The translations under genes and the position numbers were made by a program. A stretch of 64,000 nucleotides of DNA from the NCBI GenBank assembly GCA_021108075.1, contig JAIORP010000012.1, forward strand, positions 6,539 through 70,538. Direction: 5' to 3'. Position 1 is the stretch's first letter, and the number at the start of each line of letters is the position of its first letter. This document shows, one piece after another, positions 14,267 through 51,309 of the stretch. The notes under the pieces were generated by a model, which saw nothing but the letters and a program-made list of their open reading frames with translations, was not told the origin of the DNA and did not search any database. The stretch is from Candidatus Omnitrophota bacterium (GTDB lineage Bacteria; Omnitrophota; Gorgyraeia; Zapsychrales; Zapsychraceae).

Positions 14267-14293
14267 GAGTTTAAATATCGGGGAGGGGTTTTG

Positions 14294-14971
14294 ATGAAAG
14301 TGAATGTGGTAAAAAATGTTTTAAGGGCCAATGATATTGTCGCGCAGGAAAACAGATCGGTTTTTAAAGATAAAGGTGTTTTGGCCTTGAATTTGATCAG
14401 CTCCCCGGGCAGCGGGAAGACGACGTTATTAGAAAAGACATTGCCCGTGTTGAGTCCTGATAAATCGATTGTTTTAGTCGGTGATCTGGAAACCACCCGT
14501 GATGCCGAACGCGTCGCTCCACACGCCCTGAATGCCACCCAGATCAACACCGGCCTGAGCTGCCATCTTTACGCGAATCAGATCGCTCAAAGTTTGTCAG
14601 CTTTACCCCTTGATGACGCCCAATATTTGTTCATTGAGAACGTTGGCAATATGGTCTGCCCGGGAGAGTTTGATCTTGGTGAAAATTTGAAGATTATTTT
14701 GTTGAGCGTTCCGGAAGGGGATGATAAGGTCGCCAAATATCCCACGATTTTTCGTGTCGCGGACCTTATTTTGCTCACCAAATGCGAGTTGCTCGATATT
14801 TTGCCTTTTGATGTCCAACGTGTCAAAGAGGATTTAGCGAAACTCAATTCCAACACAACATTATTGCCGTTTTCATCCTTTAAAGGGGATGGCATGGATG
14901 TCTGGATCGACTGGCTGAAACAAAAGCGTCAAGAAAGCATCGGCGCCCAAGCGAAATTTGTGACGGAATAA
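14294..14971 (+). CDS. hypB: Hydrogenase nickel incorporation GTPase HypB
   Basis: SSPGSGKTTLLE, CHL, ENVGNMVCP, EGDDKVAKYP. Confidence 0.95.
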   Translation: MKVNVVKNVLRANDIVAQENRSVFKDKGVLALNLISSPGSGKTTLLEKTLPVLSPDKSIVLVGDLETTRDAERVAPHALNATQINTGLSCHLYANQIAQSLSALPLDDAQYLFIENVGNMVCPGEFDLGENLKIILLSVPEGDDKVAKYPTIFRVADLILLTKCELLDILPFDVQRVKEDLAKLNSNTTLLPFSSFKGDGMDVWIDWLKQKRQESIGAQAKFVTE

Positions 14972-17359: not shown

Positions 17360-17698
17360 TATTTTAAAATTTTCAGTTTTCCTCCAAAGAGAATGTCGGG
17401 ATTGTTTATCGCGACCCCATCAAGTATAGCTCCGCAACTCCAATGCCTGTGAAAGTGGGATGAGAGTTAAATCCAGAAACGAAGATTAGCGCCAATAGCG
17501 CTTGTAATAGTAAGTCCCCCGGGTGTGAACCCGTGGGAAGCTATTTTTCAGGCTCATTTTGCAGTAGAAAAGACTCTATTTTGATATATAATAATATATG
17601 TTGTATACTTATTTAGTTAAGTATTAATTTTCTTTATATTATGGCATTCATTGCAAGATGAGTTGCCATCCCTAATTCTACCATCGAATTTTTAACCG

Positions 17699-20600
17699 TT
17701 GATTATTTTTATGCCGTCAAAATCTATGTCTTACAAATTGTTTTGCCTCTTTTTGATCCTCGCGCTCGGTGTTCATATGATCATGCCTGCCACGGGTTTT
17801 GCGCAAGGGATGATATCTTTGCCCATACCAGGTGAAATGGTGAGGGTCAGCCCGGTCTTTGATCCCATGATGATCCGGGGCGTGATGGTCAGTCCGGATA
17901 ACCCCTTTGAACTGAAATTTTTAATGGATAGCGGTGACGCGATCCTGGCTGATGAAGCCCTTAAGAAGGAGGGGCAGGGATTAATCAAGTATTTTTTGGC
18001 TACATTAACGACTCCGGATGAGGATCTGTGGGTTAATCTTTCTCCTTATGAAAACGACCGTATCATGGCCAATGAATTCGGTCAGACCGAAATGGGCCGG
18101 GATATGTTGGCCCAGGATTACTTGTTGAAGCAATTGACCGCCTCTTTAATGTATCCGGAAGAAGAACTGGGTAGACGGTTTTGGGAACGTGTTTACGAAG
18201 AAGCGTACAAACGCTTCCGCACGACGAATATTTTAGTCAACACGTTTAATAAGGTATGGATCATTCCTGAGTACGCGGATGTGTATGAAAAAGACGGTGT
18301 GGCGTATATTCTTGACTGCCGGCTAAAGGTTATGTTGGAGGAAGATTATATCGCCTCCCAGCAAGTGTTGGGTAATGCTGCTTGGGCCCGTAAGCTTGGC
18401 GTGGCTGACTTGACGGAAGAAGATAAAGCGAATTTGTTCGCCTCACAGAGCGATCCTTTAAAAGCCATCCTTAAGGAAATCATTGTTCCTGAAATTGAAC
18501 GGGAAGTCAATGAAGGACGAAATTTTGGACAGCTTCGTCAGATATTCTACTCGATGATTTTAGCGACATGGTACAAAGAGCGCCTGAAAAATTCCATCCT
18601 CAATCATGTCTACTCGAATCAAAAAAAAATAAACGGCATTGATGTCGAGGACAAAGACATTAAAGAAAAGATCTACCAACAGTATATCACCGCCTTTAAA
18701 CGTGGTGTTTACAATTACATTAAAGAGCAGTATGATCCGCAAAAAGGCGAGGTCATCCCACGCAAATATTTTTCCGGCGGGGCGACGTGGATCAATATCA
18801 AGGATGTGACCCGTTACCACAAAGAACTTCCATCAAATTTCGATAAGGTTCCCCGGTCCGATTTTGCCATGCTGACCAGGTTAGATGATTCCGCCCAAGC
18901 GGCGCCGCGCGCGATGGACGCGGCGATGCTCGACACCTCAGGCCGTCAAAGAGCCCGCCAGGATGCTTTTGAAAAGCTTGTCCGTGACCGTTTTGAGTTT
19001 GATAACGTGATCGCTTCTTTTAATGATTTGCTCAAGGGAGCTAATCTTAAAGTTTATCCATCCCGCGCGGATCTCTATCAGTATGAAGGCGGTCTGGATA
19101 CCGGAAGTTACTTCTTTACAAAATTAGTCGGGTATGGCCTCGACGCTCAGAGGAAATACATCGCGTTAAGGCGCTTGATTGAGCAGGATCAGTTTTTAGA
19201 TTTTATAAGTGGAGAGGCAACCTTTTCTCGTGGTGACCTATTGCGGATATTGAAAAATAAAGAATTGGACGATGAACTGGACCTGATATTAAAAGATCAA
19301 GACAGTTATGATGATTTTATTTCGATGTTAGCAGACCGGGACTATATGGATATTCTTTTCAGTCACACAGGGACCGCTGAGATTTATATTGAAAATAACA
19401 AGTTGGTTGCTCAATTACCCAATACTCAGCTCGTCGATGTACTGGGATTTATTTCTTTTTCCCCTGAGGATCGAAATATTGAGTTCCTCCTGTCCGAGAA
19501 TTCCATGGCCCAGTTCCTTTTTGATATCCGCCGACAAGTGCTGCCATTGTTAGTTGAGGCCGCGCAGGAATATGGATGGGGATTCCGCTCTCCGCTTGAA
19601 GTTGAGCTTTCGGATGCTGTCAGGCCAATCGCAAATGTGATTTCAAGAGTCCGGGAGCAGGAATTAGAACGGTTTTTAGGCCAGGATACGTTTAGCCGCC
19701 GGGTCGAAGACTTAGAACATGGGGCTTTTCAAAATTTAAAGGATTTGTTCCAGGAAAGGAAGCAGCAGGGGCAGCCGGTAATGATTGGCATCAGCGGTTT
19801 ACCCGGAGGCGGGAAAACGCAGAAAGATAAACGTGTCGCGGCAGCGATAGCAGAAGTTGTTAAGGAAGATATTGTGATCATCGACGAAGACCGGTTTATA
19901 AAACAGCGGGCGCCCGTGGACACCCGGGGGGAAGGATTGGGAGGGAAATTTGACTGGTCTGCGCATGATCAGAGCCTTAAGGACTTGCGGGAAGGCCGCT
20001 CCGTAATGGCACAGATGTATGATCCTGTGACGGGGGGGAATCCGATGTTGGCCCTCACGGAGGCCGGAAACATCATTATTTTGAATGGAAACAGGACGAT
20101 AACCATTGTCGCTGATAAAGACCAGAATCTTTTTGACTTGATCGAAGAAGAGCATCAACCCGGTCAACCAGCGCAAGTGATCAGGCATCATTTTAAGACG
20201 GAGAACTTGACGCAGAGCGGTCCGTTTACATCAGGTTCAACGGTCTATCAATTTAAAATAGAGAACGGAAAGTTAATGGTCGGATTTCAGGGGTATGATG
20301 TCTTACGATTGGAAGAACAGAACGCGCCCCGCAACATCTTGGCCATGACACAATATGAAATTGATTTAACACGTGAAGACCTCGTCGCGCGGATCCAACT
20401 GTCGGGAGAACATAAACATCTCGAAGCGCAAAGTGTTTTTCCCCTGAACGTCGTGTCTGACCGGATGGATGTGAACGCTGTGAGTCGTGCTATTCTCTTA
20501 AAGGAAGTCATCCCGACGGACAAACCGATTGTGTTTTCAGGAACGCATGCCTATACCCAGTATAAAGATAATAAGTTCGTGTCGAATGATCAGATCTTTG

Positions 20601-23600
20601 ATGTGAGTCTGTATTATCAGACGCCATGGATTGTGCGCTGGACGCGTGATTGGTTAAGGAGCCAAGAACGAGGCAAGCAAAGAGGGGAACAGCTCGGGAA
20701 TGCGGCACGTTTTTATGACCGTTTGAATGTGGAGGAAACGATTTCCTTACAGACAAAACCTCAGGTCGTTCGCGATATTAAAATTATGGGTGTCACGGAA
20801 GCTATCGCGTATTTGTTGCACGCGTCGCCTGAAAAATTATTTGTGCATGAAGCGTATCTTCGGCAATTAGGTCTGGACCTGAATACAATTCGTGAGTGGC
20901 AACGGGAATATCTTGTTAAGCCGGAGCTGCTGAGTCTTTTTAATGAATTTAGAGAGAAAACGGAATTTGTACGGACATATGACGGCCATGATGAGTATTC
21001 GATCGGAGATTTCATTTTCAACGTGAAGAGCGGACAGAGCGCGTTATCTCAGGCTGAGATTCTTCATCATGACCGGCTTCAGGACCGGTTAAGGGGGATT
21101 TGGGGCGGCAGCACGATTATTCATTTGGATCAGCTGGGTGATGTTGTTGTCGACGGGGATAAAAAAAGGTTCGGTTATGTTTCCGTCTGGAATAAAGGCG
21201 AGCTGGTCGGAGAACGTTTGAAGGCGCTGGCTCAAAGAACGGATCCAGACAGTTTGACTGAAGCGCAAATTCTGATCGATCAATTTGTAGAGCAAGAGCA
21301 GCAACTGCACCTGAGAGGGGTTGTCGATAAAAATCCTGATATTATGACGAATCGCCGGATTTTGCCGATGGATAATCAGATGAAAGTGATGGTCGCGAGT
21401 CCGGCCGCCCAGTTGACGATTTGGGAGAATGCGTTATCTGTGTACCAGTCCCGATATGCCTCACGCCGGGCGGATGAGAATATATATTTATCTCCTCAGA
21501 TTTTACAAAGCATTCCAGAGGCGTTCAGGCCCTATTATGAACAAAAAGTAACGGAACAATTGTTGCCTTCTGCCGGACAGACAAAAGAAGACGCTTTTCA
21601 GCAATTTTACAATAATGTCTTTGAACTCGCCTTACATGTCGCGGATCGATCTCCCTTCGGAGACCTGATAAAATTTGGTTTAGTCCGTAATGAACAGGCG
21701 CATTTGATTGTTGAGAATTTGAAGAATACAGACGTGGAACATCCGGCCCTATTTGAACGCCGACTGAATCATATCCGGTTTATTTTTACACGGGCCCTCA
21801 TCGATCAGACCCGTCGTGATTATTTTGATTACGTCAATACGTCAAAAGGAAATCCGCTGCTTGCCTGGACCATGCTTTTTGTTGATTCATACCCGGAAGT
21901 TTATAATAAATTTAATTTGCTCATTAAAATTTTTCTGAACGAATTGATGGAAAATGCGGGATTGTTACAGTCCTTCCCCTCGAATGAAGAACTCTGGCAG
22001 TACATTTCAGCACGGTATCAAGAGACTTATTCTGTTAGAGGGTTAGCGACTCCCGGGTTAAGTGCATATGTGCGGCGTTCTTTTGAATATTTTATCGATA
22101 TCGCCCGTCAAATGCCGTTAAGCTGGGACTTGATACAAGAACGGCCAGCGGTCACCGGTGATTTGGCCTCAGATCCATACGAGTTTTCCCTAACATCTTA
22201 TGCCAATGAAACGCAAGGGTATCCCGATATGATGGGGGTACAAGTTTTAGATGAGCGTGAGTTTGGTCGTCTCAGGACCTATATGGATCAACCGCGTAAA
22301 GCGGTCTTGACAGACCTCGACGGCACAGCAACACTCGTTGATCAGAAATCAGGTCGAGTTAGTGAAAGCGTAAAAGAATCGCATAAGGCCAATATTCAAC
22401 GCTTTGCTGAGCTGGTCACTGATGGCGTCTTAGTTGTTCCGACCACAAACCGCCGGGAGTCAAAAGCGGTTGCTTACGCTGAAGAAATTGATCAGGTCAT
22501 CCAGCAGACTCCCGGGTATCGGTATCGTCAAGATTCTAGGACGGGCGGATCGTTTTTATTGTTTTGGGCCTCTGGGATGAATGGCATGGATGTTGGTCAG
22601 AATAAATTATTAGATGATTTTCAGTTAAAATTTAATCCGCAACAACAGGAAGAGGTCGTTCAATCCTTGCTGAAGGATCAGGTTATCGCGTCACGCGCCA
22701 CAAGACATGTTGAGATCCTTGATGGAAAAATTAATGTTTATTATTCAGGTGGTACGCGCGTAAGCCGGGCAGGTTTTTTAGATGCTATCCGGGGTGTTTT
22801 AGATGGTTTGAATACCCTGGTCCGTCAAGACGGTTTTGCCCCAAAGGGCGAATATTCTTTGCTGCGGGTTGTCGACGGGGGAGAAAATGTCATCTCGATA
22901 CTGCCGCAGGACGCTAATAAGGCCCGGCCAAAGAATTATATTCAAAATCGTTATGCTATATCTGAAGATGAAACATTGATCCTTGTTGACCAACCGCAAC
23001 AAGGACGGGCGGACAATGACCTTGTCCGTTTGTCAGGTATTCATGTTGGGGATGATATCGATGATTTACCAGAAGGAGTTATCAGCACCAAGAAAGCAAT
23101 CGGCCTGGTTGGTCCGCAGGCGGTTCAATGGCTGCTAACAAACACAGAATTTTCTTCTCCTTTTATTGAAGAAGAAACCTTCCGCTCGATACTGGCAAAG
23201 AATATCCCACCGACACGGAATGTCGTCATTGAAAAGGTCGGAAACTTGCGTTTGGTGAGAACTCCCTGGCGCAAAAGACGTGTTAATCCGACAACCCCTT
23301 TTAGCGCGGTTGTTCTTCCCTTTGATCCTGGCCTTTTTAATTTTCGGAACGAAAACATTGATGAAAGCGATATCTTTTTCGAAGGCATTATCGAAGGGCA
23401 GGAAACAACGTTATTGTTGCAAAAGTCTCCCTTTGCCCCCGATCATTTTCTTGTAATTCCTGAGCGTGATCTTGAGCGTCCGCAGGTATTGCAGCCAAAG
23501 GACATCGCTTTTGGTGCCCGGTTTGTCCGTTCGCAAGCTTTGCCGCATTTGCGTTTGGGGTTTACAAGTTTAAAAGGCGGCGCATCTATTAATCAGCTGC

Positions 23601-26600
23601 ATATGCAGGCCTTCACGACGATCGAAGACCTTTCCGCGTTAGAATTGGTTCCTAAAAAAGAGGAGTACCGTATTCAAGGCGTCAGTGTGAATGTATTGGA
23701 AACAATGGAGGACTATCATTATAACGGCCTGATGTTCCATTCAGAGAACATTGAAGACCTTTCTGTTGTTGTTTATCGATACATCGAAATATTGAACCGG
23801 TTTGATATCCCCTATACCGTTAATTGGACCCAGGTCGGGGTGTATGTTATGCCGGTAAGAAGTTCCGTCGGGATACAAGGACGATTGGGTTTTTATGAAC
23901 ATATGGGTTTTGTTATTTCTAAAGATGTCAGCGAAAGCCGAGAGCAGGCTGTCGCAAAGTATGCTGATGAAATGCAATCAGCATCTCTGAACGATGCGGA
24001 CTTTATCCTAACGCATCAGTTTACCTTCTCGACCGAAGAGATTGAAGCTGCATCATTGAGGGAATTATCTTCCCGGTTAAATGAAGGAACGGACCGTCCG
24101 TCTGACGCGGCGATGTTGGGTGGCAGGGATGACAGGAATGAAGAGCGGCTTAATCTGGAGGCGTTAGAAAAGATAAATCTGCAAGCCTACGGGCCCGGGG
24201 GGCGCCATGGACTGATTGACCTGGAAAAATCTTACAATGATTCGCGTGTTTTTATGAGTTATATTTTCGGGTTAGCCGGGGCCGGGATGGTTGGTCTTCC
24301 GACAGCACTAATGACTCAGGACATCTATTCGTCCGCGACGGGGGCGCTCGTTGGTGCCGGGGTCGCGATCGCGACATATGTAAAATTATTTCCACAATCA
24401 AAATATAAAAATATTGAAGAGGGTATCCAGGCGTTGGAGAAAGCGCGTACTCAAGAGGAGATCCAGTCTGCGCGAGGTTTATTTATCGATGGAATGGCAG
24501 GCACAGATTCAGTATTGCTTCATCGTTTGGGCTTAACAGGTTTGGAAACATCGGAAAAATTATTTGCTAAAATGATGGGCGCAGAACAAACAGAGCTTGT
24601 TCTTCCTTCTGATATCCAACCCATCCAGGCTGATCAGATCAGGCAATTAGAAATAAATATGGGACTGGCTGGACTGGCTGATTTGTTAAAGATTGTTGTT
24701 CATGAAAAATTCGCGTACTTTTCCGTTGTTCCATCAATTCCGACCGATGAGCAACGGAAGTCATTAAGGGCCGCGATATCAGACCCTGATGTGATCAGGC
24801 GGCTTTTTAAAAACGTATCTGATGATAGCAATACGATAGAACGCCTGCAAGAAAGGGTATGGCACGGGATCTTTGATCTGTTGTACCGGCAGGATGGAGA
24901 CTCTATATTCTCTCCGGAGTATTTAGAGCTTTACAGGGATAATGAGATTTTTATGGAACAGGGGGTTTTGCGGGAGCTTGCCAATGATCAAGAACGCTCT
25001 CAGGAAGATTATCTGGTTGACGCGGTGAAATCAGAAATTAAAGCGGACAAACAGTATAAAATTCTTGTTTTCGCGACTGGCTCGGGAGCACTGATTAATA
25101 ATTTGTTGCAACAAATTTCAAATATTGGTGAGATCGTTGAATATGACCGTAGCGCTACTTCCAATGAAACGGCTGATCGCAAACGCAGAGAATTGTTGCC
25201 GCCCGATTTATATAATAAAGTTCGGCAGATTACAGCTGATGTTAGAGATTTTAAATCTGAGCTGAATGGCGAAGAGTTTGATTTTATTATTTCCACGGCA
25301 TCATTGCGCCTGATGAGTTCCGAAGCCCGGGAAAGCATATTAGAATTTTTGCAGGAAAAAGCAGGGTTGCGCAAGGGGGGATCGTTTATCTATATGGATA
25401 CCAGGGAGCATTCAGAAATCATGGGGCAGGCGGTCGACCAGATGCGGACGTCCGGTTTTAATGTGAGCGTTGATGATAAGTTTTTCGCGGGCCACAGAGA
25501 CGCGATGTTTTATATTTTTGTGCATCAATACCGAAAGAATCAAATCTTTAGAAATTTTATTGATCAGTTAATGAGCTTAAAGCGTAAAGATAATTTATAC
25601 AATTTTCTTTATGAGATGGCCGGTCACAGGAGAATCAAATTCGAATTATTAAAGGCGACGCAAACATCTGAGAGTTTGAGGAAAAAGAATTTTGAATCAA
25701 TGGTGAATCGATTTTCTGACGCCACAAAACAGATGTTTGGTTCTGTGTTTGAAGATGCACGGGTGACAGTCCAAAAGGGACCCAGTTCACGAATCACAAT
25801 CCGTTTATTTGAAAAGGATCCAGATGTTGATTATTTAGACAGCTATGATATCAGCGTCGATACCGCGCTGGGCCAGGTGTATGCGGTCACTCTTTATGAT
25901 GGGCGGAGTATCGGGAAAAACACTTTAATTGTTGGACGCGCGGTCTTGCAGGATCCAACAGTGGATAGAGTCATTCTGACGCAGCATGTGTTGTCTTCAA
26001 AATATGGATATGATGAAGCGTTAAAGGAATTGAAGTCCGTGTTATCTGAAATATTGCCTGAGGGGATGTTAAATTTTGATGAATCGGAAACATTGGATCG
26101 TTTAGCGACACATGCCGCGGGGTTAACAAAGAGTGATATGTCGGAGGCTATTAACGCCATTCCGGTCGATGCGGAAAATTACGAAGATATGATCATTGAA
26201 GCGTTTCGTTCATATTCTCGAACAGTCTATCCTTCACAAGAGCGTTTGCCTTTCCGGGGAGCGGCAAAGATTTTTCGAGAGAATGCCTCGATGGCGATGC
26301 GTTTGGCCGGCGAAGAGGGTTATTCATCAATTAGCGGACTCGTTTCTTTACCTGATGGTTTTCAAAATTTAGCGTTATATCAGAGGCTTGGTTTTAATCC
26401 GATAATCCCGGAAGGAAGAAGCGATTATTTTGGACAGGTGCAAGCAGCGTTAACAGATAAGAGCGCGGGCGCGACCTTAAAGGAAAAGGCCTGGTATTTG
26501 TCGCAACGTCTGGAGCAATTGATATTACTCGTTCAAAAAGATATTCCTGATCAAGACGCGGCGATGTTGGGCAAAATCAATCGTTATCAACTTAAAAATG

Positions 26601-29600
26601 GGGCAACGGTTTTAGGCCCGTTATCTGAGGACGCGTTTAATCAGATGGCAGGCGAAGACGCGTTTTTTCTTGTCAGAGATAAGGAAAAAGGAGTCTATGC
26701 TCAAAAGACAACCCCCGAGGAGCAGGGTTATAGTGTTGTTGCAACGGAATTTAGTGAGATCGAAACAATTTTTAAGGATGCCGGTGTGGATATGGTCACT
26801 CATATTTTGTCGACGTTATGGGAGAATCCAGATCGTGAAGTCGTCGTGTTAGCTGATGGAGTTGGCCGGGGAGTGGAATTGCAGGGACTTGTTGAAAAAT
26901 TAAAGAAAGAGGTAGAGGCTTTCGGCCTTGATATATCAAAAATCAAAATTTATGGTCTTTCAGACATGTATTTTCAGGACTGGCAGGACGCAGACCCGAT
27001 GATCAATTTTATTCTTGATGATCGAGAGAACTTGCCGGACTATTTCTCGAGAAGGCAAATTGACGTGATGATGAGTTATAAGGGCATTTCTCATATCGGT
27101 CAGCAAGCGGAATATATCAATCATATGAGAATGATGAAGCCGCACTTTAAATACAACGCCTTAATTGTCCATGATTTTTATTTTGGGAATTTAGACGCCG
27201 TTGAATCGATGCTGGAGCGGAATGGTTTTTCGGTTAAGAGGGAACGGTTGCCGGGTATGACGGAGTTATTTGTTCTGCGACCGGTCGATTTTAATAAAGA
27301 TGCGCCTGCCGATGTATCAGAAAACACGAATAGGGAGGTTAAAACGGTGCCGTATCAACAGGCGGAGTTTTTTGAACTCACGCCTGATTACAAACTAGCA
27401 GGAACATACACCACCCGAAAGGGAGAAGAATTCAATATTTATTTTAAAGATAATGATTTTGTGTTGATGAACGTTGAAGGGCAGTTTATCGGTAAGGTTG
27501 TATTTGATTTTACGGAAGAGGGTGTCGCGGAAATTGATTTAGTGCGCGTTTCAGAGTATGTTCAGGGGGAAGGATATCTGTATGATTTGATTGATGCTAT
27601 ATCTTTTTATTTAGGACAATTGGGAGCCGAAAGTATTGTCGTTACGGAAATTTATAATCCATTTTTGTCCTATGTTTTGACAAAAGAATATGGATTTCAT
27701 CCTGAGATTAAAGAGGGTGATGAACGCAAACAATTGATTATTGGTTCACGAGAGCCAGGTGAGAGACTGCCCGTTTATCTTTCCGGAGAAGGCGCTAAGA
27801 AAGTTTTCTCGCCGGGCTCAGGGTATGATGTTCTATTAGAAAAGTTAGATATCCTTGATACCCCTCCCGATGATGGCGTTGTCAGCTATGTGTTTGTTGA
27901 TTATGTTAAGGACGTTAATAACGCGCGATACCAACAGCAAATAAGTTCTGTCAAAAACAGGATGGCGATTGATGGAGAAATTCTTGAGCAAAGGAAGAAC
28001 GAATATCAAACAAAATTTCAGCGACGAGGAACAGACGACATGTCAGAAGATCACCGCGATCAAGCGATGTTGATAACCTATACGGAAAAAGAGTGGCAGC
28101 AAATAGACCAGACGTATCAAATTTTGCAGCAGTTGGCGCAGGTGGTTGATACTCAGATGGAACAGAGTGGTATGGTTGAAATTTTTGATGTCTTCCGTCA
28201 ATGGCTCAATCAAGGACCGCGGGATGCTTTGGCCCAAATCGAATTGATTGAGGACCCTCAGGAACAACAGGAAGCTTACCAGAAATTAAGCGCTGCCCTA
28301 TCACGTTTTGTTCATGAATTTGAGACAACATATGATCATGTATCGAAAAGATGGGGGCAGGAAATCGCGGGCGTTAACGGCCGGTCCTTTGTTCAATTTG
28401 ATACGGATGGGAAGGTCCTTTCTTATCCATGGTTTGATTTGACGTATGACCTGAATGACAAGTTGGATAAACTGGCCACCTTTATTCTTGGCTGGGGGAA
28501 GCTTTTGGTTACGGATGGCGCTGTTGCCAAAGATAATTTTTTGCTTTTGGTCAACAAATTGGAATCTACGTACCGCATATGGGATGGTTACCGGCAATAT
28601 TTGCGCCATGTTGCGGATCCGCTGTCAATTCAAGATAGTCAGATCGCGGATAATCAAGAAGAAAGAACACAGCCGCGTTTGGGTTATGATGAGTTTTTAT
28701 TGCCGTACCGCAATGCGTTATTAGCGCGCGATGCGGACCAGGATACTTTGGAGCAACCGCGTGAAGAATATGTTGCCCTGGTGGATGCGCAGGGGAATTT
28801 TTTGCGGGCTGTTCCACGTTCTGAGCGTAAAAATAAGGCGCCGGATGAATTTACTCAGGGTGCTGTTATTATTGTTGTCGATGAGGATGGGAATGTTTTG
28901 ATGCAGCAGCGATCAGAAGGGAAGATGGAAGGGCACGAAACCTTTGGCCCCATGGATTGGACCATCGGGGGGCATCGTTCTGATGAGGATGCCGACATTG
29001 AAGCCGCTGCTTTGCGCGAAGGCAATGAAGAGGCCGGGGGCATTATCAATTTTAAGAAATCAAATCTGGTGCAGATCGATCAGCGTCCTGTTAATCCGGA
29101 CACGGATGGCCGCTGGGTGCGCTCAACGTTCATTTATGTGGTCAGTGCAACAGAGAAGAACAATATTCAGGAACAGATGATCGAGGGCTGGCAAGGGAAT
29201 GACGAAGTTGACGGCTGGGAGTGGTGGGGGCAAGATGATTTTACAACAGAGGCAAAAACGAGCCAGAAATGGTCAACCGTGATTGATCTGTTAAGAGACA
29301 TTCCTGATTTTCCGGCGATGGTAGAAACGGCTGTTGTGGGTGTTACGCAGCGTCGCCGAGATAGCACGGTTCGAGACGGGGCAGCACTGACAACCTATAC
29401 GGAAAAAGAGTGGCAGCAAATCGACCGGACCTACCAGACGCTGCAGGAGATCGCCTTAAGCGTTCAGGGGAAATTGCAGGAAACAGGTATGACCACTCTC
29501 TTTCTACGCATCGACCAGTTCCTGGTCCAGGAGGACCCACGGCTGATGTTTGAACAATTACAAGACTTACCGAGCAAAGAGGCTCAAGATCGGGTTTATG

Positions 29601-30313
29601 CGGTAATAAACACGGCCATGCAGGGCTATGCCCTGAATATCAAAACCATGTATCAGGAAAACATATCAGAGATTGACGCTCAACTCGCCCGGATCAAAGG
29701 CCGATCCTTTGTTCAATTTAGCGCGGAGGGGGCATTGGAAGCATACTCTGCAGAGGAGTTGATCTATGACATCAAAGATAAGATAGGCAAAATAACGACT
29801 AATATTTTTTCCTGGTGGGATATGCTGTCATCAGACGGTGATCTCCCAAGGGAACAATTTTTGTTTATGCTGGATCAGTTTGAATATGCGAGTGAGGCAT
29901 TCCATCAGTACCGTTCTTATCTGGGACACATTCTTCAACCAATTCGTATTCTGGATGAAGATATCGTTGACAACCAAGAAGAACAAAGCCACCCACGGCA
30001 AAGCTATGATCAATTTTTACTGCCCTACCGTGATGCGTTGATCGCGCGTGATACCGCAGTCCAGGACGCTGCCATGCTGGGCAGAGAGCAAAGTGACAAT
30101 GTCGGTGGTATCGATCTTAATCCCGCCAATTTGAATCTGCGCATCAAGCGTGACGGGGATGGTCAGCCGTTGCCGTTTGATGCCCAACCGATCGATAGTA
30201 TTAACATTGAAGGACTGGTCCCTGTGATCATTAATGTTACACCGATCATAAACCTGCCGCTATTGCTTGGAGCGGCTGAGCCGGGTGAAGTCGATCAGGT
30301 CCTATCCCTTTAA
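17699..30313 (+). CDS. Giant (4204 aa) putatively exported modular multi-enzyme protein with DxAML-delimited cargo modules
   Basis: Uninterrupted ORF; start may be ATG17711 or later. Signal-peptide-like N-terminus (LFCLFLILALGVHMIMPATGFA/QG). N- and C-terminal domains shared with 47473..51309. Internal P-loop, HAD, HIT-like, SAM-MTase, GNAT and Nudix motifs. Confidence 0.9.
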   Translation: MIIFMPSKSMSYKLFCLFLILALGVHMIMPATGFAQGMISLPIPGEMVRVSPVFDPMMIRGVMVSPDNPFELKFLMDSGDAILADEALKKEGQGLIKYFLATLTTPDEDLWVNLSPYENDRIMANEFGQTEMGRDMLAQDYLLKQLTASLMYPEEELGRRFWERVYEEAYKRFRTTNILVNTFNKVWIIPEYADVYEKDGVAYILDCRLKVMLEEDYIASQQVLGNAAWARKLGVADLTEEDKANLFASQSDPLKAILKEIIVPEIEREVNEGRNFGQLRQIFYSMILATWYKERLKNSILNHVYSNQKKINGIDVEDKDIKEKIYQQYITAFKRGVYNYIKEQYDPQKGEVIPRKYFSGGATWINIKDVTRYHKELPSNFDKVPRSDFAMLTRLDDSAQAAPRAMDAAMLDTSGRQRARQDAFEKLVRDRFEFDNVIASFNDLLKGANLKVYPSRADLYQYEGGLDTGSYFFTKLVGYGLDAQRKYIALRRLIEQDQFLDFISGEATFSRGDLLRILKNKELDDELDLILKDQDSYDDFISMLADRDYMDILFSHTGTAEIYIENNKLVAQLPNTQLVDVLGFISFSPEDRNIEFLLSENSMAQFLFDIRRQVLPLLVEAAQEYGWGFRSPLEVELSDAVRPIANVISRVREQELERFLGQDTFSRRVEDLEHGAFQNLKDLFQERKQQGQPVMIGISGLPGGGKTQKDKRVAAAIAEVVKEDIVIIDEDRFIKQRAPVDTRGEGLGGKFDWSAHDQSLKDLREGRSVMAQMYDPVTGGNPMLALTEAGNIIILNGNRTITIVADKDQNLFDLIEEEHQPGQPAQVIRHHFKTENLTQSGPFTSGSTVYQFKIENGKLMVGFQGYDVLRLEEQNAPRNILAMTQYEIDLTREDLVARIQLSGEHKHLEAQSVFPLNVVSDRMDVNAVSRAILLKEVIPTDKPIVFSGTHAYTQYKDNKFVSNDQIFDVSLYYQTPWIVRWTRDWLRSQERGKQRGEQLGNAARFYDRLNVEETISLQTKPQVVRDIKIMGVTEAIAYLLHASPEKLFVHEAYLRQLGLDLNTIREWQREYLVKPELLSLFNEFREKTEFVRTYDGHDEYSIGDFIFNVKSGQSALSQAEILHHDRLQDRLRGIWGGSTIIHLDQLGDVVVDGDKKRFGYVSVWNKGELVGERLKALAQRTDPDSLTEAQILIDQFVEQEQQLHLRGVVDKNPDIMTNRRILPMDNQMKVMVASPAAQLTIWENALSVYQSRYASRRADENIYLSPQILQSIPEAFRPYYEQKVTEQLLPSAGQTKEDAFQQFYNNVFELALHVADRSPFGDLIKFGLVRNEQAHLIVENLKNTDVEHPALFERRLNHIRFIFTRALIDQTRRDYFDYVNTSKGNPLLAWTMLFVDSYPEVYNKFNLLIKIFLNELMENAGLLQSFPSNEELWQYISARYQETYSVRGLATPGLSAYVRRSFEYFIDIARQMPLSWDLIQERPAVTGDLASDPYEFSLTSYANETQGYPDMMGVQVLDEREFGRLRTYMDQPRKAVLTDLDGTATLVDQKSGRVSESVKESHKANIQRFAELVTDGVLVVPTTNRRESKAVAYAEEIDQVIQQTPGYRYRQDSRTGGSFLLFWASGMNGMDVGQNKLLDDFQLKFNPQQQEEVVQSLLKDQVIASRATRHVEILDGKINVYYSGGTRVSRAGFLDAIRGVLDGLNTLVRQDGFAPKGEYSLLRVVDGGENVISILPQDANKARPKNYIQNRYAISEDETLILVDQPQQGRADNDLVRLSGIHVGDDIDDLPEGVISTKKAIGLVGPQAVQWLLTNTEFSSPFIEEETFRSILAKNIPPTRNVVIEKVGNLRLVRTPWRKRRVNPTTPFSAVVLPFDPGLFNFRNENIDESDIFFEGIIEGQETTLLLQKSPFAPDHFLVIPERDLERPQVLQPKDIAFGARFVRSQALPHLRLGFTSLKGGASINQLHMQAFTTIEDLSALELVPKKEEYRIQGVSVNVLETMEDYHYNGLMFHSENIEDLSVVVYRYIEILNRFDIPYTVNWTQVGVYVMPVRSSVGIQGRLGFYEHMGFVISKDVSESREQAVAKYADEMQSASLNDADFILTHQFTFSTEEIEAASLRELSSRLNEGTDRPSDAAMLGGRDDRNEERLNLEALEKINLQAYGPGGRHGLIDLEKSYNDSRVFMSYIFGLAGAGMVGLPTALMTQDIYSSATGALVGAGVAIATYVKLFPQSKYKNIEEGIQALEKARTQEEIQSARGLFIDGMAGTDSVLLHRLGLTGLETSEKLFAKMMGAEQTELVLPSDIQPIQADQIRQLEINMGLAGLADLLKIVVHEKFAYFSVVPSIPTDEQRKSLRAAISDPDVIRRLFKNVSDDSNTIERLQERVWHGIFDLLYRQDGDSIFSPEYLELYRDNEIFMEQGVLRELANDQERSQEDYLVDAVKSEIKADKQYKILVFATGSGALINNLLQQISNIGEIVEYDRSATSNETADRKRRELLPPDLYNKVRQITADVRDFKSELNGEEFDFIISTASLRLMSSEARESILEFLQEKAGLRKGGSFIYMDTREHSEIMGQAVDQMRTSGFNVSVDDKFFAGHRDAMFYIFVHQYRKNQIFRNFIDQLMSLKRKDNLYNFLYEMAGHRRIKFELLKATQTSESLRKKNFESMVNRFSDATKQMFGSVFEDARVTVQKGPSSRITIRLFEKDPDVDYLDSYDISVDTALGQVYAVTLYDGRSIGKNTLIVGRAVLQDPTVDRVILTQHVLSSKYGYDEALKELKSVLSEILPEGMLNFDESETLDRLATHAAGLTKSDMSEAINAIPVDAENYEDMIIEAFRSYSRTVYPSQERLPFRGAAKIFRENASMAMRLAGEEGYSSISGLVSLPDGFQNLALYQRLGFNPIIPEGRSDYFGQVQAALTDKSAGATLKEKAWYLSQRLEQLILLVQKDIPDQDAAMLGKINRYQLKNGATVLGPLSEDAFNQMAGEDAFFLVRDKEKGVYAQKTTPEEQGYSVVATEFSEIETIFKDAGVDMVTHILSTLWENPDREVVVLADGVGRGVELQGLVEKLKKEVEAFGLDISKIKIYGLSDMYFQDWQDADPMINFILDDRENLPDYFSRRQIDVMMSYKGISHIGQQAEYINHMRMMKPHFKYNALIVHDFYFGNLDAVESMLERNGFSVKRERLPGMTELFVLRPVDFNKDAPADVSENTNREVKTVPYQQAEFFELTPDYKLAGTYTTRKGEEFNIYFKDNDFVLMNVEGQFIGKVVFDFTEEGVAEIDLVRVSEYVQGEGYLYDLIDAISFYLGQLGAESIVVTEIYNPFLSYVLTKEYGFHPEIKEGDERKQLIIGSREPGERLPVYLSGEGAKKVFSPGSGYDVLLEKLDILDTPPDDGVVSYVFVDYVKDVNNARYQQQISSVKNRMAIDGEILEQRKNEYQTKFQRRGTDDMSEDHRDQAMLITYTEKEWQQIDQTYQILQQLAQVVDTQMEQSGMVEIFDVFRQWLNQGPRDALAQIELIEDPQEQQEAYQKLSAALSRFVHEFETTYDHVSKRWGQEIAGVNGRSFVQFDTDGKVLSYPWFDLTYDLNDKLDKLATFILGWGKLLVTDGAVAKDNFLLLVNKLESTYRIWDGYRQYLRHVADPLSIQDSQIADNQEERTQPRLGYDEFLLPYRNALLARDADQDTLEQPREEYVALVDAQGNFLRAVPRSERKNKAPDEFTQGAVIIVVDEDGNVLMQQRSEGKMEGHETFGPMDWTIGGHRSDEDADIEAAALREGNEEAGGIINFKKSNLVQIDQRPVNPDTDGRWVRSTFIYVVSATEKNNIQEQMIEGWQGNDEVDGWEWWGQDDFTTEAKTSQKWSTVIDLLRDIPDFPAMVETAVVGVTQRRRDSTVRDGAALTTYTEKEWQQIDRTYQTLQEIALSVQGKLQETGMTTLFLRIDQFLVQEDPRLMFEQLQDLPSKEAQDRVYAVINTAMQGYALNIKTMYQENISEIDAQLARIKGRSFVQFSAEGALEAYSAEELIYDIKDKIGKITTNIFSWWDMLSSDGDLPREQFLFMLDQFEYASEAFHQYRSYLGHILQPIRILDEDIVDNQEEQSHPRQSYDQFLLPYRDALIARDTAVQDAAMLGREQSDNVGGIDLNPANLNLRIKRDGDGQPLPFDAQPIDSINIEGLVPVIINVTPIINLPLLLGAAEPGEVDQVLSL

Positions 30314-30503
30314 CACAACGCAGGGGTGTAGCATGCCAAGTCCTGACAGAAAACATTTTTGTTACACTCCGTCTCTGTTTCTTCCCACAAGAAATTTTTC
30401 TTGAAAAGAAATAATTAATAGTTATAATTTATTTAATTATATTATTACTAATAATTAGTGTTCTTTTCAAATTTTTTTTTCTACATGGAATTATTTAAAA
30501 TTA

Positions 30504-30557
30504 CGCGGGGTTTATTGTAAGTGCGTAACATGCGCATCCCCTACAATAAACCCCGCG
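30504..30557. repeat. Long hairpin in the hox leader region
   Basis: CGCGGGGTTTATTGTA...TACAATAAACCCCGCG, 16-bp perfect stem. Confidence 0.6.
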
Positions 30558-30624
30558 ATGATCCTACGGGTGTGTGCACCCAAAGAATTAAATCCGTTTA
30601 ATTTCAATATCAAAGGTGAAGTCT

Positions 30625-32442: not shown

Positions 32443-32467
32443 ATCATTGATAACATAAGGACGATTT

Positions 32468-33187
32468 ATGAGTGAAAAAACGATAACATTTACTATTGAT
32501 GGTGTTGAAGTCAAGGGGGCACCCGGTCAAACTATTCTTGATGCGGCTGATGCCGCGGGTATTTATATTCCCCGTCTGTGTCACTTCAAAGGCCTGAATC
32601 CGCACGGAAGTTGCCGCGTGTGTACCGTCATTGTGAACGGCCGGCCGCAAGCCGCCTGCACGCAACCCATCGCCGAAGGAACGACAGTTGAAAATGATAC
32701 GGAAGATATAAAGAAACACCGCAGCAACATCGTTGATATGATGTTTGTGGAGGGGAATCATTTTTGCATGTTCTGTGAAAAGAGCGGCAATTGTGAACTG
32801 CAGGCCCTTGCCTATCGTTTAGGTATCTGTGCCCCGAAATATCCGTTTCAATTCCCTGACTGCACGCTCGACGCGTCTCATCCGGATATCTTTATTGACC
32901 GCAATCGTTGTATATTATGTGGCCGCTGTGTTCAGGCGTCGAAAGATCTTGATGGGAAGTGTGTTTTTGAATTTGTCGGACGCGGCGCGGAAAAGAAAAT
33001 TGCTGTTAACGCCGAGGCGAAGTTATCTGACACGAATGTTGATGTGACGGATAGAGCGGTTAATATCTGTCCGGTTGGTGCCATTTTGAAGAAGCGTGAA
33101 GGCTTTAAAATTCCTATTGGGGAACGGATGTATGATGCTCAACCGATTGGTTCTGACATAGAGTCTGATACCAAATCCATTAAGTAA
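32468..33187 (+). CDS. hoxU: Diaphorase small subunit HoxU
   Basis: IPRLCH, SCRVC, HFCMFCEKSGNCELQ, CILCGRC, CPVGA. Confidence 0.9.
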   Translation: MSEKTITFTIDGVEVKGAPGQTILDAADAAGIYIPRLCHFKGLNPHGSCRVCTVIVNGRPQAACTQPIAEGTTVENDTEDIKKHRSNIVDMMFVEGNHFCMFCEKSGNCELQALAYRLGICAPKYPFQFPDCTLDASHPDIFIDRNRCILCGRCVQASKDLDGKCVFEFVGRGAEKKIAVNAEAKLSDTNVDVTDRAVNICPVGAILKKREGFKIPIGERMYDAQPIGSDIESDTKSIK

Positions 33188-33310: not shown

Positions 33311-33354
33311 AAATAACAATTTATATTAATTTATTTGGGAAAAGGTAAAGAATT

Positions 33355-47472: not shown

Positions 47473-50400
47473 ATGAACGCGTTATTTTTCTCGAACCTTT
47501 CCACATTTTCTCGAAAAATTTTATCTGTTACTTTATGTCTTTTTCTCATTCTGATATCCACCCCGGTCCCGCTTGTCAGGGCCCAAACGCCATTGAATCT
47601 GCCCTTGCCAGGGGCGGCGGTCCCTTTAACCTCCGCGTATGAACCCGCGTTATTAAGGGGATTGACCATTTATCCGGATAATCCTTTGCAGTTTGAATTT
47701 TTGTTGGATGCGGGCGACACTTTTTTGCGAGGTCAAGCATTGCGAAAGCAAGGTGAAAAGTTAATCAAATATTTTTTGGCCGCCTTAACCATTCCTGAAG
47801 AAGAGATGTGGGTGAATCTTTCTCCCTATGAAGATAATCTTATCATTCCGGATAGTTTTGGTGACACGACCATGGGGAGCGACCTTTTAGCCCAGGATTA
47901 TTTGCTCAAGCAATTAACCGCTTCTTTAATGACCCCTGAAGATGAGATCGGCCGGATTTTTTGGGACCGTATTTATGAAAAAGTTTACAATATGTACAAG
48001 ACAACGGACATTCCATTGAACACGTTTAATAAAATTTGGATTGTGCCGGAATCAGCCACAGTCGTGGAGAAGGGTAATGATGTTTACCTTATGAATAGCC
48101 GGTTAAGCGTGATGCTGGAAGAAGATTATGTCGCCTTAAAACAAAATCTTGGCGACGAGAAATTCGGCACCGAGCAAATGGAAATGGATGAAGCTCAGGT
48201 AATCAGTCAGGTCGCGACAGAATTGGTGCGTGAGATTATTATCCCTGAAATTGAAAGAGAGGTCAATGAAGGCCAAACTTTCGCTCAGTTGCGGCAAATT
48301 TATCATGCCATGGTTTTATCCACCTGGTATAAGCAGAATTTAAAAGAATCATTCCTGGGGCAGGTCTATATCGATCAATCCAAGACAAAAGGTGTGGATA
48401 CCTGGGATAAACAGGTCACGAATAAGATTTATGATCAGTACATTCAAGCCTTTAAATCAGGAGTCCAAAATATCATCCGTGATGAGTATAATCAGCATGA
48501 TGGAGTTGTTGTGCCGCGGAAATATTTTTCCGGTGGTTTTACCACGCAACGTTTTGATGGCCGTGATTTGGCGATGTTGACCACCCGGATCAATTTGGAG
48601 TATTTCCAAAATGTTGACGCGAAGTCAAGAGCGGAAGTTCGGGATTGGCTGATGGAAGCGGATAATAGTGAGTTGTTTCAGTTTTCATTGTCTTTGATCG
48701 AATACACGGAAAATAATGAACTGCACATGGACGATGTTGTTAACGCCGGTTTTTTTGATAATGTGATTGATGAACTTCACTCACAAAGGATAAACTTACT
48801 AAAGGAGGCTCAGATCGCGCCTTTTATGCTGGAAATTCCTTTTGATCAGCGGATACAAGAAGACGGAATATCTCACCCTACGACCAAAGATGACCTGATT
48901 ATTATCGGGGAAAGATTTCGCAAGGGAATTGATCGTATTTCTAAAATCGTTCACCGGGATAAACTGACAGGTCTGTATAATTTAGATGGATACATGTTGC
49001 GGTTGCAAGAGATGGTCGATTGGATCAGACGTCAGGGTGATAAGGATGATCAGCTGCAGTATGTCTTTTTTGATATCGATCATTTTAAGGCGGTAAATGA
49101 TACTTTCGGTCACGATAATGGGGATATTGTCTTGCAGGAATTCGCCGAGATTTTAAGTTCAAACGTGCGCGCTTCAACCACAGTCGCCCGGATCGGCGGG
49201 GAAGAGTTCATCGTTATGATGTTTGATAAATCATCTGAAGATGCTGTTCTCGCCATGAAAAGAATGAAAGGCGTTTTGCGGGATCATTTTCAAACGCAGG
49301 TCAGCAAGACGGACAAGACATTTTTGTACGATAAAAAACAACTTGTTATCCAGGCGAAGAAAAGGATCGGTAAACTCCTTGAAGCAAAGACCGCCGGGCA
49401 GTCGGTTGGTTTTGATATAACAAAGTTACGGGACGCGATCGCGCACCAGGTTAAGGTCCAGGCAACCAATGACGCCGAAAGGCGATTCGCTCAAGCCCTC
49501 CAGTCGGAAGCTCTTTTTAACGCGGATGAAACCGGAGTTAATCCTGAAATTGAAAAGGCGCTTGACCTATTAGCGGGCTGGATGATCACGTTCAGCGCGG
49601 GGATAACGATTTTTGATTTGCCCCAGTATGAAAAGCTGCTTCAACGTGATGGCATCAAATCCGGTGACGCTTTGACGCAAGTGGCGACATTGCTTTATCG
49701 TCAGGGTCAAGCCGCTGTTGAGGTGGCTAAAAACAGTGGACGGGATGAAATAACGGTTTTTGATCCAGAGACAATGGAAATCGATGAAGACAGGGATCTG
49801 GGCAGTTATGCCAGTCCGGCCCCCTCTTATGAAGCGCATGACCTGGACAAAATGACGAGACGACGATTATTGAAAGAAGTCAACGGGCTCCGTAAGAGGT
49901 TTGTATCCTTGATAAATAAATCCGAGACCGATCCGTTAACAGGAATGAAAAACCGCAATGGCTTATATCAAAAGTATATTGAACGGGTGCATTACGGCGC
50001 GCGTTACCAGCCTGATACGAGTATGGCGTTAGCCTATACGGATATTGATTTCTTTAAGACCATTAATGATAGTTTTGGCCATGAAATAGGGGATGATGTT
50101 TTAAAGGCTTTAGCCGCTGGGTTTAAAGAAAATTTAAGAACGATTGATACCGTGGCCCGTTTCGGCGGCGAAGAAGTCATTATTTTTTTGCCGGCCATGA
50201 AGCGCATGGATGAGCAACGGACGATTTTAAAAGTTAGAGATATTGTCAGGAGAACAACAAAATACATTCGGGAAAATGTTTCTTTATTCGGGAACAAGAC
50301 TGAGGTGATTAAAAAAATTAGAGCGCGCATCGGGGCCCTCGACGAAAGTCAAAAAGAAGGGCTTGGCGTGGACGCTGATCTGGCGAATCTACGTAACGGT

Positions 50401-51309
50401 CTGGTTCATCAGTTAACCGTGCAGGAAGTTTTTACGGATGAAAATGAAGCAGAAAAGAAAAGATACCTTAACGATACGGGTATTGCCACCCTCTATGAAT
50501 TAGCCGATTTGCTTAATGGTTGGGACGTTACTTTAAGCGTCGGTGTTGAGATCGATGATTTTACGGAAGAGGGCAAGATCCAGTCTTATCTGAAAAAAGG
50601 AGATTTAGACACGGGGTTAACCTTGATGGTTGCCAAAGCGGAAATCGCCGCCGGTTATGTCAAAGAGACGGGCCGTAACCGCGCGGCTTATCACAGTGAG
50701 GTCCCTCGAGTGTCAAGACCCGCGCCAAATATCTTAGCGATCATCGAAAAGGAACAGGACCGTGACGGGTTCAAGGCTTATTTTGAAAATAAAGGTTATG
50801 TTGTGACAGTTGTTGGCGACTTAGAATCGGCTGAAGGTGAGTTAGCGGAACAATTAGCCAGGTATAGTTTTGTTTTAACGGAAAAACAATCCGCGGTTTC
50901 TGCCGACGATGATTCTTACCTTCCTGGCAATGAGGTGATTGATCGTTTAAGATCGATATTTCCCGGGATAAAGTCTTTGATTTTAGGCAGCCCGGAGGAA
51001 ATCTATGATGTTGATCATATTGAAGAGATGATCACAGGCGCGATTGGTGAGGGAAAAACAGATCAAGCCATGTTGACGGCTCGTTTGGATAACACCCCGG
51101 TCGGTGGTATCGATCTTGACCCGGCTCTGCTTGATTTGAAAATTAAACGCGATGGAGAGGGCATTGCCTTACCACTACTGCAACAACCGCCCGAAGCGCT
51201 GCAAATTGAGGGCTTTATCCCTGTGATCATGAACGTGACACCCGTGCAGACGCTGCCGATTTTTCTTGGAAACCTGGCGACTGAAGGGGATACGTTAGCC
51301 CAATTATAG
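47473..51309 (+). CDS. Putatively exported modular protein (paralogue of the giant protein) with tandem GGDEF domains and a degenerate REC-like domain
   Basis: Signal peptide (ILSVTLCLFLILISTPVPLVRA/Q), shared N-domain, DLAML/DQAML boundaries, DIDHFKAVNDTFGH..RIGGEEF, DIDFFKTINDSFGH..RFGGEEV, shared C-domain VGGIDLDP..IKRDG. Confidence 0.9.
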   Translation: MNALFFSNLSTFSRKILSVTLCLFLILISTPVPLVRAQTPLNLPLPGAAVPLTSAYEPALLRGLTIYPDNPLQFEFLLDAGDTFLRGQALRKQGEKLIKYFLAALTIPEEEMWVNLSPYEDNLIIPDSFGDTTMGSDLLAQDYLLKQLTASLMTPEDEIGRIFWDRIYEKVYNMYKTTDIPLNTFNKIWIVPESATVVEKGNDVYLMNSRLSVMLEEDYVALKQNLGDEKFGTEQMEMDEAQVISQVATELVREIIIPEIEREVNEGQTFAQLRQIYHAMVLSTWYKQNLKESFLGQVYIDQSKTKGVDTWDKQVTNKIYDQYIQAFKSGVQNIIRDEYNQHDGVVVPRKYFSGGFTTQRFDGRDLAMLTTRINLEYFQNVDAKSRAEVRDWLMEADNSELFQFSLSLIEYTENNELHMDDVVNAGFFDNVIDELHSQRINLLKEAQIAPFMLEIPFDQRIQEDGISHPTTKDDLIIIGERFRKGIDRISKIVHRDKLTGLYNLDGYMLRLQEMVDWIRRQGDKDDQLQYVFFDIDHFKAVNDTFGHDNGDIVLQEFAEILSSNVRASTTVARIGGEEFIVMMFDKSSEDAVLAMKRMKGVLRDHFQTQVSKTDKTFLYDKKQLVIQAKKRIGKLLEAKTAGQSVGFDITKLRDAIAHQVKVQATNDAERRFAQALQSEALFNADETGVNPEIEKALDLLAGWMITFSAGITIFDLPQYEKLLQRDGIKSGDALTQVATLLYRQGQAAVEVAKNSGRDEITVFDPETMEIDEDRDLGSYASPAPSYEAHDLDKMTRRRLLKEVNGLRKRFVSLINKSETDPLTGMKNRNGLYQKYIERVHYGARYQPDTSMALAYTDIDFFKTINDSFGHEIGDDVLKALAAGFKENLRTIDTVARFGGEEVIIFLPAMKRMDEQRTILKVRDIVRRTTKYIRENVSLFGNKTEVIKKIRARIGALDESQKEGLGVDADLANLRNGLVHQLTVQEVFTDENEAEKKRYLNDTGIATLYELADLLNGWDVTLSVGVEIDDFTEEGKIQSYLKKGDLDTGLTLMVAKAEIAAGYVKETGRNRAAYHSEVPRVSRPAPNILAIIEKEQDRDGFKAYFENKGYVVTVVGDLESAEGELAEQLARYSFVLTEKQSAVSADDDSYLPGNEVIDRLRSIFPGIKSLILGSPEEIYDVDHIEEMITGAIGEGKTDQAMLTARLDNTPVGGIDLDPALLDLKIKRDGEGIALPLLQQPPEALQIEGFIPVIMNVTPVQTLPIFLGNLATEGDTLAQL

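Follow-up and report, generated by a model that had tools for sequence, protein, structure and literature searches.

What is the function of a five-residue motif, DxAML, that recurs between the domains of a giant bacterial protein? The protein is encoded on the + strand at 17699..30313 of a 64,000-nucleotide stretch of a Candidatus Omnitrophota genome (G000:C8:6539-70538, where G000 is the genome carrying the stretch; the whole stretch is called the window here). It has 4,204 residues counted from the first TTG, two of them cysteines. A paralogue of 1,278 residues is encoded on the same strand at 47473..51309. A preliminary description of the window listed nine copies of the motif in these two proteins and proposed a protease site, a DNA microhomology joint for module shuffling, or both. 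All nine copies are indeed in frame. Enrichment, codon use, block boundaries and comparison with the nearest orthologue support the view that the motif is a module delimiter under protein-level selection. On the sequence evidence, there is a little better than an even chance that DxAML is the G000 version of a tag that brackets exchangeable modules and is the putative cut site of one trans-acting protease.

The motif is concentrated in a single family. G000 encodes 19 paralogues of 857-5,392 residues, including both window proteins, that share a signal-peptide-like start, a head of 330 residues ending in R[KR]YF[SL]GG, variable cargo and a tail of 70 residues starting with GGID; the tail is conserved at the C-terminus of all 19. 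The family contains 50 copies of DxAML in 39,252 residues, versus 12 in 973,460 residues of the other stop-to-stop open reading frames (ORFs) of G000 of at least 250 residues. This is a 103-fold enrichment in the family-versus-proteome comparison that had been proposed as a check, and six of the 12 outside copies sit in one giant of 13,943 residues. An unbiased scan for gapped k-mers in the cargo also placed D.AML first, with 50 copies against 0.45 expected, in 18 of the 19 proteins.

Placement is equally specific. Counting degenerate forms (DxA[QSLVIA]L), a motif follows the head within 35 residues in 17 of 19 members (random cargo windows, 3.0%) and precedes the tail within 20 residues in 16 of 19 (random cargo windows, 1.7%). 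At junctions Q, S, L, V, I or A can stand in for the Met, so a role as an internal start codon is rejected. None of the 25 internal motifs falls within a homologous cargo block, against 8.1 expected (0 of 20,000 permutations); the blocks were defined by 45 BLAST cargo matches to non-orthologous proteins, with self matches, matches of at least 52% identity and four near-orthologues excluded. Spacing between motifs ranges from 7 to 3,503 residues, and paired tags 7-42 residues apart are common after the head. The last motif was described as starting 82 residues from the C-terminus. This is true of both window proteins and of 5 of the 16 paralogues having a C-junction motif, but the family range is 77-111. 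In some members (L056, L063, L065, L042, L043), words resembling the genome's tag (DQAML, DAAMF, DPAMV, SSPT) also turn up in the tail, within its variable loop.

The window giant illustrates the arrangement. Its start is likelier the ATG at 17711 or 17726 than the first TTG. A Sec-type signal peptide (17711..17803, assigned by eye from the alignment of the 19 paralogues) consists of a basic n-region, a hydrophobic h-region, a Pro and a small residue before Q. The head (17804..18781, ending RKYFSGG) is followed by two junction motifs, DFAML (18860..18874) and DAAML (18917..18931), and by a block of 1,729 residues that has no internal motif and weakly matches a P-loop kinase (uridine-kinase/zeta-like), a HAD-like and a HIT-like domain (18932..24103). 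DAAML (24104..24118) separates this block from a class I SAM methyltransferase joined to a second domain without assignment (24119..26554). After the next DAAML (26555..26569) come methyltransferase-like and GNAT-like domains, both weak matches (26570..28057), then DQAML (28058..28072). An unassigned module follows (28073..28741), which is copy 1 of an internal duplication and is 40% identical in amino acids and 58% in nucleotides to copy 2 (29390..30064). Between the copies lie a decayed site, DTLEQ (28742..28756), a NUDIX hydrolase module (28757..29374) and a degenerate motif, DGAAL (29375..29389). DAAML at the cargo-tail junction (30065..30079) precedes the tail (30104..30310, starting GGIDL). 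All of these features are on the + strand. In a public run, overlapping contigs span 20752-30600, although this run may itself be the source of the sequence. The paralogue comprises a signal peptide, a head (47584-48537), DLAML at the head-cargo junction (48565..48579), cargo with two GGDEF domains, DQAML at the cargo-tail junction (51061..51075) and a tail (51103-51306). Every motif lies between domains, as had been proposed, but borders without a motif also exist, as within 18932-24103. The claim that individual effectors are delimited is overstated, as the unit from one motif to the next is in some cases a block of several domains and 1,700-3,500 residues.

Selection acts on the peptide rather than on the DNA. 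Motif copies do share DNA: 17 nt between 24104 and 26555, as reported, and 12 nt between 18917 and 24104. However, among 1,596 site pairs no shared run exceeds 17 nt and only two pairs reach it, and this rarity indicates that the likeness is forced by codons. Each of the 50 DNA-pattern matches within family genes keeps the coding frame. The Asp and Leu codons of the motif match background (p 0.38 and 0.24), and a skew in the Ala codon (p 7e-5) is equal in Ala-Met pairs outside the motif. The DNA flanks are 28% identical, and the tags of other genomes have no DNA word in common. The proposed analysis of synonymous sites thus places selection on the peptide, DNA-level conservation being absent. 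A microhomology joint for shuffling, with the peptide as a by-product, would account for runs of up to 17 nt and for gains, losses and duplications of modules that end at motifs; given the frame, codon and flank data it is very improbable. Strain-level breakpoints at the motif were not found in the contig sets of four runs, where depth was low and power was low.

Modules are nonetheless gained, lost and duplicated from motif to motif. The duplication in the window spans motif to motif. The paralogue on C35 resembles P0137 up to a DQAML and is unrelated beyond it, and an additional block of the C35 protein sits between two motifs. The nearest orthologue of the window giant, L230, has 1,041 residues versus 4,204 and is 66% identical over the head region. 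Its order is head, DKAML, a NUDIX module as in the window, DAAMM, another module and tail; the NUDIX module that is deep in the window giant is therefore directly behind the head in L230. The DAAMM of L230 corresponds to DGAAL in the window, and its DKAML, like the DAAML of duplication copy 2, aligns with the decayed site at 28742, which is absent from the preliminary description. The simplest explanation is that selection favours modules with a motif at each end: gains and losses end at motifs because only modules bounded by motifs would survive selection.

Relatives of G000 use other versions of the tag, including SSP[VIL], NxAVL, SSS/SSA and DGG. Among 27 genomes surveyed, with 1-19 proteins each, the version is clear in 14, weak in five and absent in eight. 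The clear versions (observed/expected) are DxAM in G000 (57/4.6), G139 (24/0.8), G129 (18/1.0) and G167 (8/0.6); SSP in G197 (19/1.0), G200 (12/0.6), G157 (27/1.7), G143 (19/0.6), G193 (16/2.2), G189 (10/1.0) and G095 (7/0.5); NxA[VMI] in G151 (17/3.9); SSS[LVI] in G079 (17/1.5); and DGG in G179 (18/2.1). A common shape, [D/N/S]-x-[A/P/S/G]-hydrophobic or small, covers these versions, and no residue open to modification is common to them all. DxAM and SSP[VIL] co-occur in only 4 of 120 database homologues (p 9e-5). Pairs of classifiable proteins from one named genome carry the same class in 33 of 38 cases versus 19.4 expected, although the named genomes may partly overlap the 27 surveyed.

The version of the motif goes with the genome and not with protein descent. 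Homologous cargo carries differing tags in register (EAAMF/NAAVL/SSAI, DRAML/SSSI and DAAML/SSPL). In a quick tree of head domains the 19 paralogues are scattered, and the tree implies 10 changes, only two of them forced by strong branches; a DxAM protein of G000 and an SSP protein of G197 have sister heads (SH-aLRT 96). Versions differ even between genomes of one family or genus (G000/G200 and G151/G167). No column among 148 head and 125 tail sequences separates DxAM from SS-type proteins dichotomously.

The tag is also shared with an unrelated protein. The single giant at the Tad locus of G000 (contig C1) has an N-terminal C39 domain and neither head nor tail, yet contains DxAM[LM] seven times against 0.24 expected. 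Such giants carry the tag of their own genome in 8 of 11 clear-dialect genomes sampled, the further cases (observed/expected) being G197 (SSP, 18/0.9), G139 (DxAM, 9/2.3), G151 (NxA[VMI]L, 10/1.0), G129 (11/2.8), G157 (16/0.6), G095 (12/0.24) and G189 (8/0.3). Dialect patterns are not enriched in C39-bearing ORFs of five head-negative genomes, one of these samples comprising just 1,280 residues. Two other giants of G000 (22,742 and 26,531 residues, both 5'-cut) have no DxAM enrichment. One tag common to two unrelated families in each genome suggests one shared trans-acting reader per genome, with a protease as the likeliest type.

The tag profile would permit cutting on either side of the hydrophobic residue, or behind a Leu whose P1' neighbour is small. 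A cut before or after the hydrophobic residue fits all versions; an after-Leu cut does not. Cutting before a hydrophobic residue is zincin-like. Among candidates, a small secreted metalloprotease, Peptidase_MA_2, is encoded in 20 of 20 family-positive genomes and in 36 of 39 overall, but it is not established as reader: it is near-universal and no dialect-linked residue stood out. One copy lies between gspF and gspG in a type II secretion-like operon, in the same order in eight genomes (in G000 at G000:C20:24974-25801, L158); this copy was not found in G151, G139, G079, G141 or G157. A further Peptidase_MA_2 paralogue sits between murG and murC in most relatives. G000 also has at least seven gspE/gspF-like pairs and seven secretin-like genes (C4, C9, C20, C27, C56, C84). 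Nor is S8 established, since 11 of 20 family-positive genomes lack it. The same holds for the C39 of the Tad-locus giant, which neither query found in the single-contig genome G143. HtrA, S41, M48 and Rce1-like proteases are also listed.

Could the tagged proteins process themselves? The head keeps invariant Asn, Asp, Lys and Arg residues, and the C39 domain of the giant keeps its Cys and His in the aligned family-positive genomes and is mostly single-copy; in its accessible text, a preprint by West-Roberts et al. proposes C39/S8 processing of giants (10.1101/2023.11.21.568195). However, Cys, His and Ser are nowhere invariant in the head, the tag class is tracked by no column of head or tail, and tags follow the genome rather than the head tree. 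C39 giants also occur in genomes where neither the family nor the tag was found. Self-processing by the head/tail domain or by C39 is thus improbable. Of the preliminary proposal, a protease site remains the best reading of the sequences, while self-cleavage by the head gives way to a trans-acting reader. A slightly less improbable source of that activity, though still a poor candidate, is a protease of the host or prey acting after delivery, the tag version tracking host range. One version per genome across families would fit one host per lineage, the cargo is of a cytoplasmic type, and no protease of the bacteria profiled here fits the distribution. The differences between G000 and G200 and between G151 and G167 would, however, demand frequent host switches.

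The tag might instead be an uncut docking site for a periplasmic chaperone, a secretion-machine subunit or a modifying enzyme, which would bind one tag per module and keep the chain unfolded, or draw it through a channel in ratchet fashion. Docking explains genome-wide sharing and linker position equally well, and paired tags and tag-like words in the tail loop would suit avidity. Asp, Asn and Ser at the first position interchange typically in Asx/ST turns, which also counts for docking. Against it, both carrier junctions are tagged even in single-cargo members, which release needs and threading does not; the spacing of tags is irregular for a ratchet; and a modifying enzyme would find no modifiable residue common to all versions. 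Docking is unlikely, though far from negligible.

The carrier in question appears to be split between head and tail. The head model has high confidence (predicted local distance difference test, pLDDT, 93; predicted template modelling score, pTM, 0.91) and contains a long beta-hairpin at 149-180, as modelled without the tail. The head matched nothing named in Pfam, NCBIfam, PDB sequences or the ESM Atlas, and no phage match was found. The best Foldseek E values were 0.12 (PDB) and 0.039 (BFVD), and the best VIA Z was 3.7; the absence of a fold match proves neither a new fold nor the lack of a relative, known protease clans included. A resemblance to DUF1598 (PF07643) was rejected, as nothing in the genome matched it even at an E limit of 1. 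Among 203 full-length members, the top covarying pair overall is F39 of the head with L38 of the tail. The F/L swap between head and tail has p 2e-9, and both states occur within single genomes.

Homologues of the head are encoded on Streptomyces plasmids (25-32% identity, best E 3e-28). The actinobacterial homologues, of 770-790 residues, consist of a signal peptide, a variable N-terminal region, GGIDF, the core, YxYGGVD[LF] and a membrane anchor. In each of 120 homologues GGID stands before the core and in one piece with it, behind the N-terminal cargo; in 119 it also stands after the core. The start of the Omnitrophota tail matches the actinobacterial segment before the core (hhalign 71.6%, 20 columns). 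Together with the GGID-core order, this match suggests that one domain, circularly permuted, probably makes up head plus tail, the cargo being placed immediately ahead of GGID in every case. It is likewise likely, from covariation and homology, that head and tail pack as one split carrier domain. An XOO_2897-like deaminase is on record in seven of the 120 actinobacterial homologues, and two of 28 rescanned pass the Pfam cut-off. The actinobacterial family is large (417 matches), secreted and membrane-anchored, with toxin-like N-terminal domains and no Pfam model of the carrier; examples are L309:7855-10176 and L310:7798-10179.

A trans-acting protease at the tag would fit the following sequence of events. 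The chain would pass the inner membrane by Sec, and head and tail would close into the split carrier domain, of which the cargo would form a loop. The chain might then be handed on by a secretion or Tad/pilus machine, and the reader would cut it at every tag, freeing enzymes that lack cysteine, are cytoplasmic in type and may act in a host or prey cell. As the specificity of the reader drifts, all sites of a genome would be rewritten. It is likely that the bacterium is host-dependent and that the family proteins are exported. In its fullest form, this would be a genome-wide peptide address code: one fast-evolving protease per genome would cut all exported multi-enzyme chains, dozens of head/tail carriers as well as the Tad-locus giant, at a private tag, and a split, circularly permuted toxin-carrier domain, of a new fold shared with Streptomyces, would close round the cargo and deliver enzymes into host or prey. 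This combination is possible, though somewhat unlikely as a whole.

Several observations weigh against a protease tag and a split carrier. Cleavage is deduced from sequence, and a binder that does not cut predicts the identical sequence pattern. No reader enzyme was found; C39, S8 and Peptidase_MA_2 were examined and no candidate passed. Tags decay, as at 28742, and blocks of 1,729 and 3,503 residues have none, the first holding at least three weakly assigned domains. The eight surveyed genomes without a clear tag lack it in the proteins sampled, two named metagenome-assembled genomes (MAGs) mix tag classes, the dialect patterns were picked after seeing the data, and kin genomes are non-independent. 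The Tad-locus giant lacks its genome's tag in a sample of 6,666 residues from G167 and in short N-terminal pieces from G079 and G193. Finally, covariation between head and tail weakens when measured by mutual information (z 3.6) and is not significant on nine independent pairs (median p 0.125).

The head was found in 27 of 201 genomes sampled across the phylum, all of one class, and head-bearing sequences form 7,944 clusters at 50% identity; proteins of the head/tail family range from 600 to 5,400 residues. Homologues and loci bearing names are nearly all from Candidatus Omnitrophota MAGs, some being filed as uncultured Planctomycetales. The cargo consists of enzymes of cytoplasmic type, including methyltransferases, kinases, NUDIX, GGDEF, UGPase and PGK. 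The family has 10 cysteines in 38,112 residues, or 0-2 per mature protein, versus 1.14% genome-wide, and this near-absence despite cytoplasmic-type cargo is consistent with transit through the envelope. Internal membrane helices were indicated in two of the 19 members by crude hydropathy. No neighbouring gene recurs within three genes on each side of the 19 dispersed loci, a comparison that unrelated immunity genes would escape, and no Rfam riboswitch was found upstream at 18 sources. A headless orphan tail ORF at G000:C61:7146-7484 (L017) includes a DxAM motif. The head query matches P0125, P0012, P0022, P0097 and P0112 in two stretches, which may be two heads or insertions.

Other features of the window are of a different kind. 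A CRISPR array of 47 CRISPR-DR7-type repeats (2041-5420) lies directly after a cas4 gene (1262-1867). The giant gene is inside a hydrogenase region (8630-14971 and 30616-41506); the part before it encodes an [FeFe] hydrogenase, NADH-dehydrogenase-like subunits and hypA/hypB, and the part after it further subunits, hypD and hypE-like genes. Upstream of the giant gene is a GC-rich hairpin repeat (17457-17545) present in at least 15 places in the genome and not specific to the family. Upstream of the paralogue is an intergenic repeat (47120-47325), with 67-80% copies on C8, C111 and C2. An Rce1-like (CPBP) intramembrane protease with TPR (44615-45937) is encoded 1.5 kb upstream of the paralogue and has no counterpart beside the other family loci.

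Whether the huge proteins of Omnitrophota act whole or cut is an open question. West-Roberts et al. 2023 propose that giants are cleaved, and the accessible part of that preprint states that cut points are unknown and names them as the missing piece (10.1101/2023.11.21.568195). The giant-protein papers, in the sections available, treat proteins over about 10,000 residues or ORFs over 20 kb (10.1101/2023.11.21.568195; 10.64898/2026.06.07.730766; PMC10066038). The retrievable text of Nielsen & Lui 2026 does not contain the words 'motif', 'cleav' or 'linker' and holds no motif or cleavage analysis (10.64898/2026.06.07.730766). A tag defined for each genome predicts exact module ends in thousands of proteins and in Tad-locus giants, and the cleavage question is thereby testable in proteomes via semi-tryptic peptides. 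If true, the address code would supply, genome by genome, the cut points that the available portions of these papers lacked. Concerted rewriting across unrelated genes would imply strong co-evolution with one reader which, if found, would be a protease or binder family with natural specificity variants. Streptomyces can be cultured, and its homologue brings the carrier domain within reach of bench work. The literature searched, with supplements outside its scope, gave no description of the family or tag and no account of the apparent tag sharing across families or of the probable Streptomyces link.

How does this tag compare with known systems? Processed multi-effector toxins, as described in the available text of PMC3153235, carry a motif of 4-5 residues in interdomain linkers. 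MARTX toxins of Vibrio resemble the family in having conserved N- and C-terminal regions, a variable string of effectors and cut sites in linkers (PMC3153235). The G000 tag ends in Leu-small, resembling the site of the MARTX cysteine protease domain (CPD; P1 Leu, small P1') in that same text (PMC3153235), and its position would fit MARTX-style interdomain cleavage at Leu. Unlike MARTX, the 19 members have no RTX family among their Pfam matches, and head and tail are non-repetitive. There is no match to CPD/C80 or another in-chain protease, and mature proteins have 0-2 cysteines. The family also differs in its Sec signal peptide, its 19 dispersed paralogues and a genome-specific tag common to an unrelated family. 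The Omnitrophota giants are closer by origin, as they are from the same phylum and, in the accessible accounts, have multi-enzyme cargo, signal peptides and proposed post-translational cleavage. The Tad-locus C39 giant of G000 is of this kind and carries the tag. Unlike these giants, which exceed 10,000 residues and have many membrane helices and a Tad/T2SS locus beside them, the 19 members (857-5,392 residues) are dispersed, have internal helices in only two cases and lack C39, S8 and SecA-like domains.

Polymorphic toxin systems, in the parts of the reports at hand, likewise combine a constant trafficking module with an exchangeable payload (PMC3482391; PMC3239186). Like them, some actinobacterial head homologues carry XOO_2897-like deaminase domains. 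Unlike them, the payload of the family is between head and tail, is multi-domain and is mostly metabolic or signalling, and the C-terminus is a GGID tail, not a toxin. No shared neighbours, immunity genes or orphan cassettes were seen within three genes on each side of the 19 loci, where unrelated immunity genes would go unnoticed, although G000 has the one orphan tail ORF at C61:7146. Neither Pfam nor NCBIfam has a model that matches the carrier domain. In viral polyproteins and Kex2-processed repeat precursors, one reader acts on one short motif repeated between products. The present system differs from these in being bacterial and in having a motif rewritten from genome to genome across unrelated genes. 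By analogy, the tag appears to work like the punctuation of MARTX toxins or viral polyproteins, and is a member of neither.

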